NCBI GenBank assembly: GCA_951406725.2
Contig: OX597825.1
Coordinates: 19,220,001-19,284,000, forward strand
From: Octopus vulgaris
Lineage: Eukaryota
DNA length: 64,000 bases
Direction: 5' to 3'
Every line of letters begins with the position of its first letter. Within the stretch, counting starts at the first letter, position 1. Position numbers and translations under genes: made by a program. The notes beneath the pieces were generated by a model, which worked only from the letters and a program-made list of their open reading frames with translations, was not told the DNA's origin and ran no database searches. This document shows positions 34,545 through 62,260 of this stretch, in pieces.

Positions 34545-35640
34545 CAGAGGTGTTTTAATTTTTTTTTACTACCACGCCTCTACTAGGAAATTTTCCTTCT
34601 CTCCACGCCCTCCTTGCGTCTATGAATAAGGTTCCCTCCCACATTTTAAATAAAATCTAAATTATGCTTTAAGACGTTTTATTGAATATGTATTAGTCAC
34701 ATTATACAACATATGTATAATTTTATATATAATCACATTGTACAAAAAGTGAGATACTTGACAGTGCTTCATAACAAAAAATGTATTTCTTATTGAATTT
34801 GAATTAGTCACATTATTATTGAGATTCTTGACGCTGCTTCTTAGCTACAATATTTTGAATGCATGGTTGAATGCCAAAGAGAGCACAGAGTAATTCACTT
34901 TAAACGTTGAGCTTCTTTCTGTACTTGGTCTTGACAGCAACGAGCGTGGAAAATGCAGCTTCACAAAGATGTGTGGATCAAAACATAGCTAAAATCCGAA
35001 GCCTGATGTGAGATCAGAGGATAAATAGGAAGGTACTTGGGCCAAAACGTTTCAAGATCTACTTCTTGGAAGTCTTCTTTAGCTGGGGAGTTGAACTTCA
35101 GCACAAGAAACTCCTCTTGCACTTCATCCAAAGAGAAGTTTTCGATAGTGAAATCAGAGAAAATTTGTTTGCACTAACTTTCACCAGAACGAGTTCTGCT
35201 GCAAGGAGTAGATTTGGTTTTATGAGAGACTCTCCCATGATATGGCTCTTCCTGCTCTTTGCAATCAACATGGCGATCTCATGGGAAGCCTCAACAAACC
35301 TTAAAGTTTGTTGCTGAAATGCCCCACTACTGTCCAACTTAGAAAGCTTCAAGGAATGTCTTTTTGTTTCAAGGAATGCCTTGAGCTTGTCTACAAGAGC
35401 AGGATGTGATGTCCTCAAGTAGCGTTCAAAGCATGAGGGTTGCATTCCACCATTGCTCAAAGTTTTGTAACATATCACACACTAGGGCCATCTGTGTCAC
35501 CCTTTTGGAGGGACACGAATCAAGATCTAATATATTCGTCAAGATACTTCCGTATCTTTGCATTCATTGCGAATTATTTGATGTACAGTGGTCAGCTCAA
35601 ATGTGCGAACTAAAGATAAGGCATGTGTAAGGTAATGTCA
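34545..35640 (-). mobile_element. Internally deleted hAT (Buster/Charlie-like) transposon relic
   Basis: From ATG 35567 it reads MNAKIRKYLDEYIR…CVICYKTLSNGGMQPSCFERYLRTSHP (BED finger)…EASHEIAMLIAKSRKSHIMGESLIKP. It then jumps to the C-terminal dimerisation domain (…LCEAAFSTLVAVKTKYRKKLNV…QESQ*, stop 34816-34818). A CAGAGG terminus sits at 34545; the other terminus was not located. Confidence 0.88.
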
Positions 35641-37962: not shown

Positions 37963-38278
37963 GGTCATTTAACCCTATTATCTCCCCTGATTTCGCTCTT
38001 GCGTCTCCCGTTTGATCTTTGACTTCTGGCCGAAATCAGATTGCCATGTTGATTCGCTAGCCTCTGCACGCATTTTTTTTCTCTCCTTCTTCCTGTGTTT
38101 TTTCTCTGTGTATCTTTCTGTAGAAGAGCGTAGGCTCGAAACGTTAAAGACTTGTTTTATTTATATTTCCTGAGCGCCATACTAATACAATTGTTTGTTT
38201 GTATTCCACCTGCCTTCGTCTTTTGTTTATTTCCGTAAACCTGCCTTCGTCTTTTGTCTATTTTCATGAAGCTTCCCG

Positions 38279-38280
<2 letters not shown>
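37963..38280 (+). mobile_element. Solo 3' terminal repeat of the Penelope-like element, with hammerhead-like motif
   Basis: Close reverse-complement match to 59717-60000. Ends CTTCCCGTT directly into (TA)n and has an extra ~30 bp tandem duplication of CCTGCCTTCGTCTTTTGT. Confidence 0.92.
38113..38150 (+). ncRNA. Minimal type-I hammerhead-like ribozyme, variant core
   Basis: TCTTT-CTGTAGAA-GAGC-GTAG-GCTC-GAAACGTT-AAAGA: stem I TCTTT/AAAGA, stem II GAGC/GCTC, palindromic stem III ACGT. The core has A6 replaced by U. Confidence 0.6.
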
Positions 38281-51775: not shown

Positions 51776-52182
51776 ACACACACACACCTAAGCCTACATA
51801 ATAATTTCTTCGTCGACTCTGGATATCTTCATCTTAAATAGGAATTAACACTGAGATTGATAAACAGATACTGAAATAAATAGTTTTGTTTGTTGCGACA
51901 GTACAATAGTAGTAAATGTTTTTGCTATTGCAAATGCAGTCCGCAGTTAACTCGACGGTATCTCTGTGTATAATGCATTGATTTGTCACAATATCATGCC
52001 CCACGAATATAATAAACAAAATGCTAAATAGCGTTTAGAGAATATCCATTTCAAAGACATTCCCTTGCAATTCTGAACGACATACATTGTCAGGCACATA
52101 TAATGAATACTCACAAACCCCATCTCTCCCTTCCTCTCTCTTTCACTATTTCTGCCTCTATCTCTCTATATGTACATATAGT

Positions 52183-52385
52183 ATGTGACCTCGTCTGTAT
52201 CACTAGCGGGTTTTTTTCCCCTGTCTTCTCTTCTCGGGATCCTTCCTTCTCCTATGTTTCCGACGAAGGGCTCCGCTCGAAACGTCAAACCCTCCTTCTT
52301 CCCTTCTTTCTTGAGCGTCCACTAATACTTTATTTGTTCCACGTCCTTGCGTTGTTTCTTTGTTTTTGTTTTCTTGTTTGGATTA

Positions 52386-52390
<5 letters not shown>
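52183..52390 (+). mobile_element. Short Penelope-terminal-repeat-like element (second family) ending at (TA)n
   Basis: Pyrimidine-rich body, a hammerhead-like motif, TGAGCGTCCACTAATAC, then a T-rich end running into (TA)n. Same architecture as 37963-38280 but a different sequence. Confidence 0.7.
52256..52290 (+). ncRNA. Minimal type-I hammerhead-like ribozyme, U4C variant
   Basis: GTTT-CCGACGAA-GGGC-TCC-GCTC-GAAACGTC-AAAC: stem I GTTT/AAAC, stem II with one G:U pair, palindromic ACGT stem III, GUC cleavage triplet. Confidence 0.65.
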
Positions 52391-55930: not shown

Positions 55931-55937
<7 letters not shown>

Positions 55938-56143
55938 CCCCACACAAAACGAAGAACAGACACATGTAAATAACAACAACGCGATGACGTCGTACATGCA
56001 AGGTATTAGCAGACGCTCAGACCACGGAAGAAAGGTGGTTTTACGTTTCGAGCAAAGCACTTCTTCAGAAACTGGAGACAGAGAAAATGAAGACGGAGGA
56101 AAAATATCGCCAACGATTCACATGTGGTTATATTTTGAAAAGT
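55931..56143 (-). mobile_element. Short Penelope-terminal-repeat-like element (third family) flanked by (TA)n on both sides
   Basis: Minus strand carries a hammerhead core, TGAGCGTCTGCTAATAC and a T-rich end running into (TA)n. Confidence 0.7.
56038..56072 (-). ncRNA. Minimal type-I hammerhead ribozyme, canonical CUGAnGA core
   Basis: Minus strand GTTT-CTGAAGAA-GTGC-TTT-GCTC-GAAACGTA-AAAC: stem I GTTT/AAAC, stem II with one mismatch, palindromic ACGT, GUA triplet. Confidence 0.7.
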
Positions 56144-59645: not shown

Positions 59646-59815
59646 CGCACACACGCCCGCACGCACACACACATATGTGTGTGTGAGTATGTGTATATGT
59701 ATATATATATATATATAACGGGAAGCTTTATGAAAATAGACAAAAGACGAAGGCAGGTGGAAAACAAACGAACAATTGTATTAGTATGGCGCTCAGGAAA
59801 TATAAATAAAACAAG

Positions 59816-59853
59816 TCTTTAACGTTTCGAGCCTACGCTCTTCAACAGAAAGA
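59816..59853 (-). ncRNA. Minimal hammerhead-like ribozyme in the Penelope 3' repeat, variant core
   Basis: Minus strand TCTTT-CTGTTGAA-GAGC-GTAG-GCTC-GAAACGTT-AAAGA. Confidence 0.6.
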
Positions 59854-60025
59854 TACACAGAGAGAAAAAAACACAGAAAGAAGGAGAGAAAAAAAATGCG
59901 TGCAGTAGCTAACGAATCAACATGGCGATCTGATTTCGGCCAGAGGTCAAAGATCAAACAGGAGACGCGAGAGCGAAATAAGGGGAGATAATAGGGTTGA
60001 TAATATGGTTGAAGGACCAGCTAAT

Positions 60026-60365
60026 AGTGCGTAGGAGGGGTCTGGACGTGTGTATGTATAGGGTTGGTGTATGTATTAGAATGTATAAGGGTGTGTGTGT
60101 GTGTGTGTGTGTGTATGAGAGAGTATTAGTGCGTAGGATTGGTGTGGACGTGCGTATGTATGGGGTTGGTGTATGTATTAGTATGTATTAGTATGTATTA
60201 GTACGTATTAGTATGTATAAGTGTGTGTGTGTGTGTGTATGAGAGAGTATAAGTGCGTATGAGGGGTCTGGACGTGTGTATGTATAGGGTTGGTGTATGT
60301 ATTAGTATGTATTAGTATGTATTAGTACGTATTAGTATGTATTAGTTGGTGTATGTATTAGTATG
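60026..60365. repeat. Minisatellite in the Penelope 3' region (three ~100-125 bp units with nested GTATGTATTA and (TG)n)
   Basis: AGTGCGTA.GA..GG..TGGACGTG.GTATGTAT.GGGTTGGTGTATGTATTAG recurs at about 60026, 60128 and 60252. Confidence 0.88.
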
Positions 60366-60407
60366 GCACATCATATATGATATGATGTGTGAAGTCGTGT
60401 GGTGTAG

Positions 60408-60730
60408 TGAGGAGAAGAGGGGGGAGAAAGGGGGAGAAGGGGAGAGGGGGAGGAGAGGGGGAAGATGAGAGGAGGGGGGAGAGAGAGGAGGGGGAGAAGG
60501 AAGGGGATGAGGGGGAGGAAGGAGGAAAGAGGGAGAGGGGGAGTGAGGGAGCAGAGGGAAGGGGAAGAGGGAAGGAGGGAGGGAGAAAGAGGGAAGAAGG
60601 GAAGGGGAGTAGGGGTGAAAGGATGAAGGACTGAAGAAGTAGGGGTCGGGGGGAAAGGATAGGTGAGGAGGGGGAGAGGGGGTTAGATGAGGAGGGGGAG
60701 AGGGGGGTTAGATGAGGAGGGGGGAGAGTT
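60408..60730. repeat. ~320 bp polypurine/polypyrimidine G-rich tract
   Basis: Almost only G and A on the + strand, with many GGG+ runs. Confidence 0.9.
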
Positions 60731-62149
60731 GAGACCAAATGGCGTATAAGAGCGAAGAGAGAAGATTAATTCCTGTTCACGGCGCAAACGGGAATCCGGA
60801 TGGCCTCTGTGTAAGGACAAACCGAACACAGATAGGTGTTGCAAGGACTGACCGGTGGAGCGGAAATGGCGTGAGACCGGTGTGTCGTTCGCAAGGTGGA
60901 TGTCACGAAGGTGTTCCGCGAACCGGTCAGCCAAGCGGCGTCCCGTTTGTCCGATGTACAAGGAATTGCAGAGAGAGCAAGAGATGCAATAGATAATATT
61001 GCTGGAGGTGCAGGTGAAGGAGTGGATGATGGGATAGGGTAGATGGTGGGTGCTAGTGAGGCGGGTGGTGTTGGAGAGGTAAGGGCAAGTGCGGCAACGT
61101 GGGCGGGAGCAGGGGAACGAGCCGGGTTGGGAGGTAGGGTCAGGGAAGGAGCTATGGACCAAAAGGTCTCGAAGGTTGTGGGCTCGTTTGAAAGAGGGGA
61201 GGGGTCGGTTAGGGAAGAGGTGTGAAGTGGACGGGTCGGACTGGAGATGACGGAAAGCTCGAAGAATGGTGCGTTGGAGACGTAGGGTCGTGGGGTGGTA
61301 AGTGAGGGGAAAAGGGAGGCGGGAGACTACAGGGCGGGTTCGGGGAGAGAGAGCAGATACACGGTCCACGGACCGTGCTCTGGCAAGGGCGGTGTGGATA
61401 GTGGTGAGGGGGTATCCACGTAGGGTGAAGTGGTGAGCCATACGTTGAGACTGAGTCTCAAAGTCATGGTCGTCACTACAGAGCCTACGTAGACGGAGGA
61501 ATTGGGAATAGGGGATGGAAAGCTTGGTGTGTTCTGGGTGGGAGGAAGAGAAGTTGAGGTATGAGTGTGAGTCTGTGTGTTTGTAGTGAATGGAGGTGGT
61601 AAGAGTGGAGTGAAGAATGCTAACCGAATTGTCGAGGAAGGAGACAGAGGTGTTGGAGATAGTGGAAGTGAAGTGGAGGGCTGGATGGAAAGATTGGACG
61701 AAAGAGAGGAAGGAATCTAGATGTTCGCGGGAGAGTGAGGTGGCACCGATAATGTCGTCGATGTAACGACCATATAGTTCGGGAGTGGGACCAGTGAAAT
61801 TAGAGAATATTTGGGCCTCAACATAGCCAACGAACAGGTTCGCATAGTTGGGGCCCATTCGCGTTCCCATGGCCACTCCCGAGACCTGATGGTAGAACTC
61901 GCCCGCGAACAAGAAGCAGTTCAGAGTAAGGACAAGTTCGGCCAGATGAATGAGTGTGGAGGTGTCAGGTACAGGGTTAGAGCGGAGGTCAAGAAAGTGT
62001 CGAAGGGCCTGCAGTCCTTCGTGGTGAGGGATAACAGTATAGAGGCTTTGGATGTCCATAGTAAAAAGGATTTTGGAGGAGCCGGGAGGAAAGGAGAAAG
62101 AGTTGAAAAGCCGGAGAGCATGGTTGGTATCGTGGATGTGGGAGGGAAG
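60683..62149 (-). CDS. Penelope-like reverse transcriptase plus GIY-YIG endonuclease (N-terminally truncated; 488 open codons)
   Basis: The frame is open 30 codons upstream of the listed Met (LPSHIHDTNHALRLF…). RT motifs are MDIQSLYTVIP, QVSGVAMGTRMGPNYANLFV, RYIDD and VSFLD. A Cys cluster CSRPRCRTC precedes the endonuclease NIIYCISC..C…YIGQTGRRLADRFAEH…RLRREQELI…GLN. No stops or frameshifts. Confidence 0.96.
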   Translation of the reverse strand, partial: LPSHIHDTNHALRLFNSFSFPPGSSKILFTMDIQSLYTVIPHHEGLQALRHFLDLRSNPVPDTSTLIHLAELVLTLNCFLFAGEFYHQVSGVAMGTRMGPNYANLFVGYVEAQIFSNFTGPTPELYGRYIDDIIGATSLSREHLDSFLSFVQSFHPALHFTSTISNTSVSFLDNSVSILHSTLTTSIHYKHTDSHSYLNFSSSHPEHTKLSIPYSQFLRLRRLCSDDHDFETQSQRMAHHFTLRGYPLTTIHTALARARSVDRVSALSPRTRPVVSRLPFPLTYHPTTLRLQRTILRAFRHLQSDPSTSHLFPNRPLPSFKRAHNLRDLLVHSSFPDPTSQPGSFPCSRPRCRTCPYLSNTTRLTSTHHLPYPIIHSFTCTSSNIIYCISCSLCNSLYIGQTGRRLADRFAEHLRDIHLANDTPVSRHFRSTGQSLQHLSVFGLSLHRGHPDSRLRREQELIFSLRSYTPFGLNSPPSSSNPPLPLLI

Positions 62150-62260
62150 ATATATGTATATGACGCTTTGTTTAATATATTAATTGGTACCTCAATTATT
62201 CCCTAACGGATTTCAAATATAATTACTTAAACAATTATAATTACTCAACAAACATTGACA

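Follow-up and report, generated by a model that had tools for sequence, protein, structure and literature searches.

A conserved box downstream of hammerhead ribozymes in octopus Penelope-like elements is complementary to a strand beyond the pLTR end, and the predicted RNA helix probably marks an internal start of reverse transcription

The 64,000-nucleotide stretch of Octopus vulgaris contig OX597825.1 that was analysed here (the window) contains four copies of a small hammerhead ribozyme, and an initial annotation had noticed a short box, written TGAGCG..CTAATAC, about 20 nt downstream of every hammerhead. The question raised by this locus is which element carries the box and what a second conserved sequence beside the ribozyme could be for. 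A minimal type-I hammerhead of family 1 lies at 38111..38153 on the plus strand, with U at core position 6 and a predicted cut after 38145. A family-2 hammerhead with C at core position 4 is located at 52253..52294 (plus), a family-3 hammerhead at 56034..56075 (minus), and a second family-1 hammerhead at 59813..59855 (minus), in the 3' pLTR of a family-1 element; only family 3 has canonical core nucleotides throughout. A covariance model, whose training set included three of the four, recovered these as the strong ribozymes of the window (E < 1e-10; next match 0.11), and all of them had the box. Stems I and II covary around the core, with 90% of cells paired and 7 of 8 pairs changed on both sides in 20 sequences. 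Rfam, at its gathering scores, returned no match. The substitution of U for A at core position 6 (38111-38153 and 59813-59855) occurs in a family that is both young and abundant.

The family-1 box occupies 38171-38188 (plus). It consists of an arm at 38171..38177, the predicted 5' strand of a long-range helix in a copy that is without the partner strand, and a conserved tail, TAATAC, at 38183..38188, for which no consistent partner is predicted and which is a candidate single-stranded protein contact. The other boxes are located at 52312..52328 (plus, family 2), 56003..56019 (minus, family 3) and 59778..59795 (minus, in the 3' pLTR of the family-1 element). All four ribozyme motifs of the window are followed by the box, as the initial annotation claimed, and it begins 23-26 nt past the ribozyme 11-mer in these copies, slightly more than the distance first estimated. 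The form with a five-base spacer was found twice in the window and at most once in window shuffles. When the box was sought beside the ribozyme core throughout the host genome (labelled G000 below, with C8, C10 and C16 as its contigs and L numbers as locus labels), 14,256 exact core-plus-box matches were found, and the reversed control gave 0.

The stable parts of the box are GAGCG and TAATAC, and to that extent the motif first written down was right; its C before TAATAC was not, as 27 of 30 family-2 copies have A there and read AATAATAC, the C being present only in the window copy. The association with every hammerhead likewise holds in the window and fails elsewhere: among 23 ribozymes met incidentally the box was exact in 12, near in 5 and absent in 6, the last group comprising one 3'-truncated ribozyme, two decayed ones and three of other types. 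G000 hammerheads of other types without the box were seen at L119:2087, L119:2330 and L121:2260. Across three families reached by protein search, identity in all three was 86% for the box arm and 83% for the box tail, compared with 25-29% for linker, loop and flanks. The families of the window had been called unalignable by eye, but the families align along the pLTR (42-76% pairwise); they share ancestry but are not one recent family, their RTs being 61-93% identical. The proposal of a second cis-element under selection fits a box that is better kept than its flanks and that has a covarying partner, described below, and the same two observations are consistent with a putative RT binding site, one of the functions first suggested. 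In the family-1 3' UTR (window 60070-60375, minus) there are many tandem 10-nt units with CTAATAC, one of them preceded by a near copy of the box middle. No description of the box or of a covarying pLTR-tail helix was found in the openly accessible texts that were searched, and hammerheads are not mentioned in the accessible text of an octopus repeat paper (PMC13282606).

Judged by its domain layout, the carrier of the box is the pLTR of a Neptune-type Penelope-like element (PLE). The copy at 59.8 kb is the 3' pLTR of a 5'-truncated family-1 element, inserted into (TA)n with its 3' terminus at 59711..59718 (minus) and bearing an ORF at 60683..62153 (minus) with RT, Cys linker and a GIY-YIG-type end. 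The remaining three window copies are short pLTR insertions: a 5'-truncated family-1 copy at 37971..38279 (plus), with a short internal duplication, which ends at a (TA)n run; a short family-2 copy at 52179..52389 (plus, ends approximate), which stops at (TA)n; and a short, older family-3 copy at 55932..56141 (minus, ends approximate). The Neptune layout, as given in the accessible text of PMC8557442, comprises RT, Cys linker, C-terminal GIY-YIG and partial tandems. The ORF protein matched RVT_1 with E=2.5e-6, weaker than the Pfam cut-off; CxxxxCxxC stands ahead of the endonuclease motif in the translation, as that paper describes for the Cys linker; and the GIY-YIG-type motif was read in the translation, Pfam having given no report of it for this protein. 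Partial tandems with an upstream partial copy made up 17 of 20 long-ORF loci, with a unit of ~4.5 kb, and a preference for (TA)n targets was seen at 52 of 57 scorable ends. The Neptune label rests on this layout, the RT tree being one without named Neptune reference sequences. All 144 scored RT candidates were 98-100% identical in the RT, and pLTR pairs differed slightly less within an element (1.6) than between elements (2.4) among 13 elements.

Several neighbouring observations were made. A second young PLE family (L394-L397; G000:C10:97.80-97.82 Mb and C16:15.98-15.99 Mb) forms head-to-tail arrays with a 6.2-kb unit and shows 68% aa identity to family 1 over RT-EN. Animal-type PLEs were present in two bacterial MAGs (L358-L363), with host contamination as the most likely origin, and a scan of viral contigs found no relative. 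Elsewhere in the window, 27450-56800 contains other dispersed 150-200 nt repeats in many copies and both orientations, and a short open frame at 35012-35481 gave, from its translation, the impression of a decayed DNA-transposase piece.

A strand complementary to the box arm was found where family-1 copies lie in tandem. Past the upstream pLTR there is a 7-nt TA tract, then 3 nt, and then GCGCTCA, the complement of the box arm TGAGCGC (L064 is an example). All 15 of the long upstream pLTR copies of family 1 were followed by this partner, and its 18-mer was exact in 13, the other two having one change outside the helix and one inside it, respectively. Genome-wide there were 149 exact family-1 junctions compared with 6,039 exact boxes, and none of 70 consecutive family-1 box copies carried the partner. 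Of the 57 copies in this sample whose ends could be scored (13 of 70 were unscored), 52 stop at the same base, at the TA tract before the TA run. The partner survives only at tandem junctions and was therefore invisible in the window to the initial annotation.

The junctions also indicate where copies end. Among 30 junction loci, 22 continue to the edge of the examined stretch and 8 (7 distinct) are short. Seven distinct mini-tandems, namely six short junction loci and an array on C8, have units that continue beyond the junction for ~240-310 nt; nevertheless, six of these terminate at the junction, in front of (TA)n, and one also holds a piece of the ORF. Copies therefore terminate within the unit, at a point that lies in the predicted loop. 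The mini-elements themselves (L444 at G000:C8:18598500-18604000, L417, L425, L428, L429, L432 and L440/L441) are non-coding, ~470-630 nt long, retrozyme-like and derived from family 1, and in four of them the sequence breaks at a common position ~122 nt upstream of the box, the 3' point to which it is joined differing between them. L146, L149, L161 and L164 are tail-to-tail palindromic pLTR insertions that turn inside the loop after the box.

The five core pairs of the family-1 helix had a predicted probability of 1.0. For a wider comparison within G000, an alignment (A3) was made from the matches to a pattern requiring five complementary bases, which gave 166 matches and 1 in the control. From 56 distinct matches, 18 were dropped (4 palindromic insertions, 13 microsatellite or chance matches and 1 near-duplicate), so that A3 contained 38 sequences and family 1. 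The box-partner helix was the only one predicted by RNAalifold on A3, where the five core pairs are invariant by selection, and hence circular and uninformative. The pair next to these five is U-A in 37 sequences and C-G in family 1, and the pair past a one-base bulge is C-G in 14, U-A in 14, U-G in 3, unpaired in 6 and a gap in 2 of 39 sequences; the outer pair is broken in 14 of 39. At the innermost position of the helix, families 1 and 4 of G000 have C-G and the other families U-A. A protein search, which made no use of the partner, also led to family 4 and to one family-2 junction; the family-4 helix is the C-G version with one G.U wobble and one A.C mismatch. Folding of the G000 junctions was no better than that of shuffles (z 0.45, 0.31 and -0.05), and the helix is absent from the minimum-energy fold of family 2.

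Outside the octopus, 80 metagenome loci and six genome-contig loci yielded 49 ribozymes with enough flank, and the G000 box was absent from this set (the genome contigs being inspected by eye). Other boxes, located 16-23 nt past the cut, are present in lineages A, A2, B and C, whose RTs share 50-63% identity with that of family 1. Each of these boxes is complementary to a strand just before an ACG motif, and ACG also follows the G000 partner. In ten rows anchored on ACG, 65 of 70 cells were paired compared with 17-30 in slid controls, the anchor and registers having been picked after looking. Two or more pair types occur at every one of six positions in the anchored rows, and when boxes were combined with non-cognate partners, 5 of 6 pairs were reached in 8 of 72 combinations. 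The anchored shuffle test was significant for family 1 (6/5000), family 2 (5/5000), A (4/5000), A2 (50/5000) and B1 (194/5000), and not significant for family 4 (443/5000), B2 (460/5000) and C (4968/5000). The anchor was present in 26 of 52 sequences, compared with 15% by chance, and 5 of 25 anchored rows had four pairs or fewer. Helix and duplex searches made without the anchor were weak for each single element, with 1-4 of 100 shuffles for the best rows and more than 10 for most. Folding z was -2.3 for A, -1.7 for B1 and -2.2 for L214; the helices in L214, L218, L260, L238 and L249 were drawn by eye without an anchor and lie outside the count of 65 of 70.

In lineage A a long end, a candidate tail, recurs at a fixed distance of ~36 nt beyond the partner. 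Among 23 of its copies, 14 end well past the helix, mostly at ~36 nt, and 9 near or before the helix. The helix therefore does not fix one start everywhere.

The sequences show the position of the box, its complementarity to the strand past the pLTR end, the covariation of the two strands and the copy ends inside the loop that they enclose. Considering all the above results, we think it probable that the box arm and the strand past the pLTR end form a predicted 6-7-bp RNA helix, and that this helix likely marks an internal start of reverse transcription. In the model that we propose, RNA spanning a tandem junction would fold the box-partner helix, and the RT-endonuclease of the element would bind it and probably recognise TAATAC and the ACG that follows the partner as well. 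The enzyme would nick (TA)n DNA, the nicked end would pair with the short UA tract lying 3 nt upstream of the partner, and copying would then proceed back through the box and the uncut ribozyme. Under this model, nearly all genomic copies would carry an orphan box because the partner, being situated 3' of the start, is left uncopied. Against it, solo-pLTR transcripts without the partner could be the source of short copies. The choice of an internal start by PLE RTs, and the roles of the pLTR end and the tail, have so far been studied in vitro for one element. A covarying short helix allows exact compensatory mutations to be tested, in a family with many near-identical open frames, and predicts that RNAs such as the mini-tandems could be mobilised in trans by a PLE enzyme.

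The 5' ends of copies bear on the template. In family 1, 25 of 70 copies start 125-140 nt before the box, 10 of them at -134, and 5' ends cluster within 120-145 nt before the box in 26 of 30 family-2 and 19 of 30 family-3 copies, in sets chosen to cover the query. This pile-up (L288-L357), which maps to window 59920-59935 (minus), is a candidate transcription start or RT stop. The cluster and the mini-element break suggest that an RNA 5' end lies there and that templates are uncut, as for PAc, the Poseidon element of Anolis carolinensis. Ribozyme cleavage as the origin of the 5' ends of copies was ruled out, since only 1 of 70 family-1 copies begins at the predicted cut site. A simple model in which copying starts at -134 and jumps once was also ruled out, as 0 of 17 upstream copies of long-ORF loci begin at the -134 cluster.

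The alternative that survives best, although we judge it unlikely, is an element that acts as DNA. Inverted half-sites, or the tail, would be read in DNA or cDNA by a dimeric endonuclease-RT, or else the junction, with its TA tract, CACGTG and initiator-like word, would be a promoter. According to the accessible texts, the D. virilis tail is needed for endonuclease recognition and a PAc dimer is predicted (PMC11167929), a rotifer pLTR has TATA and an initiator-like word (PMC3846280), and an internal promoter has been described (PMC2377424). Read from the complementary strand, A.C mismatches in the helix would be wobbles. Of 24 CACGTG-type junctions, 12 are followed by an initiator-like word, which is present in 1 of 15 other junctions. 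The arm spacing varies, with the anchor at cut+69 to +126, and the pairs change identity freely from one lineage to another, a pattern more in keeping with pairing than with a fixed protein site. Furthermore, the 5' ends 125-140 nt upstream of the box point to an RNA start upstream of the junction.

Improbable too, and ranked behind the DNA-level element, is a ribozyme switch in which cleavage would be shut off by the box invading stem II, and switched on when the downstream partner captures the box. The pairing of GAGCG with stem II suggested by the initial annotation is indeed possible in G000 (5-6 bp), and box and stem II have complementary words in common in G000 and in lineage A2. Predicted box-ribozyme pairing was 0.36-0.53 in 2 of 14 junctions and, with the partner removed, 0.45-0.94 in 3 of 14, the removal raising it from 0.02 to 0.94 in L180 and from 0.53 to 0.76 in L171; the near absence of copies that start at the cut site would also suit a ribozyme held off. 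However, stem II is probably not the main partner of the box. It is invariant across the G000 families, so that nothing covaries with it, and its possible pairing with the box comprises 4 bp in lineage A and no more than 2-3 bp in lineages B and C, whereas the box-partner helix persists. Lineage A has the same stem-II strand as G000, yet its box has changed and matches its own downstream partner, and in family 1 the predicted box-ribozyme pairing is only 0.00-0.08.

Shared ancestry alone, with the box and the complementarity as chance survivors, is very unlikely: the G000 families align throughout and the unanchored tests are weak, but the box is 83-86% identical when the flanks are at 25-29%, and both strands change together several times. 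Least credible of all is the TAATAC half as the branch point of a retained 5'-UTR intron, since, for all its resemblance to the branch-point consensus CTRAY, the C is absent in family 2, the family-1 pLTR has no AG acceptor between the box and an AAAG-ending run near the pLTR end, and no AG acceptor lies at a position common to the families. PLEs do keep 5'-UTR introns in the accessible texts of PMC4209133 and PMC8557442; in contigs of four runs, none of the 15 listed joints, out of 25, was a GT..AG joint at the pLTR, and as such contigs cannot show ends, this carries no weight either way.

For a helix at the start of reverse transcription, the closest known thing is the stem-loop of PAc (Frangieh et al., 2024; PMC11167929), in which the RT starts inside the stem-loop and requires RNA 3' of the start. 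Both systems have an internal start downstream of a hammerhead, 85-92 nt past the cut in PAc and about 103-109 nt here, and they are alike in an AT-rich target, the use of uncut RNA and a role for RNA 3' of the start, which is needed in PAc and inferred here. The letters of PAc Fig. S1, read by eye, give a 7-bp helix closing an AC-rich loop. Insertions that end inside the paired region while the template runs on, as in PAc, were found in G000 and in part in lineage A. PAc differs in clade and sequence, and its structure, shown in a single element, is situated within the ORF; the accessible text contains no stem-mutation or covariation test of it. In contrast, the box helix is non-coding, encloses a U-rich loop of ~35-90 nt and has a UA tract corresponding to the (TA)n target; 70 box copies and 30 junction loci of family 1 showed no tail of 30-40 nt.

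The ribozymes resemble the minimal type-I hammerheads of PLEs (PMC4209133) in the core, the extra base before stem II, the palindromic helix III positions and the many single dispersed copies; they differ in the downstream box and the long-range helix, neither of which is described in the accessible text. With the Neptune clade (Craig et al., 2021, PMC8557442; Arkhipova et al., 2013, PMC3846280) the element shares RT, Cys linker, C-terminal GIY-YIG, partial tandems, inverted truncated pLTRs and microsatellite targets. The Neptune tail is ascribed there to endonuclease resolution, and the accessible parts of these papers describe no pairing between pLTR and tail. The mini-elements of ~470-630 nt resemble animal non-LTR retrozymes (Li et al., bioRxiv 10.64898/2026.07.22.740005) as non-coding hammerhead repeats from a PLE pLTR, and differ in that the deletion points can be mapped here and the parent element shows 98-100% identity.

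The predicted helix also offers a concrete RNA feature for comparison with telomerase RNA. PLE RTs are the sister group of TERT, and P1, the helix that encloses the core of telomerase RNA, is likewise a long-range helix with a large loop that contains a primer-annealing stretch (PMC4993307, accessible text). P1-like geometry is found in G000, where primer annealing is our inference, and the likeness is geometric. P1 sets a 5' boundary at which copying stops, whereas here the start would lie beside the 3' strand and the 5' strand is read through, 68 of 70 family-1 copies, in a sample selected on the whole box, reaching more than 3 nt upstream of it. By analogy, we tentatively raise the rather doubtful possibility that a template-enclosing helix is a general and ancient feature of PLE RNA that offers a telomerase-related RT a short tract for annealing of the primer, and that it is the retroelement counterpart, possibly the homologue, of the telomerase core-enclosing helix. 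If so, the PLE tail would be accounted for as the strand that the helix requires for its closure.
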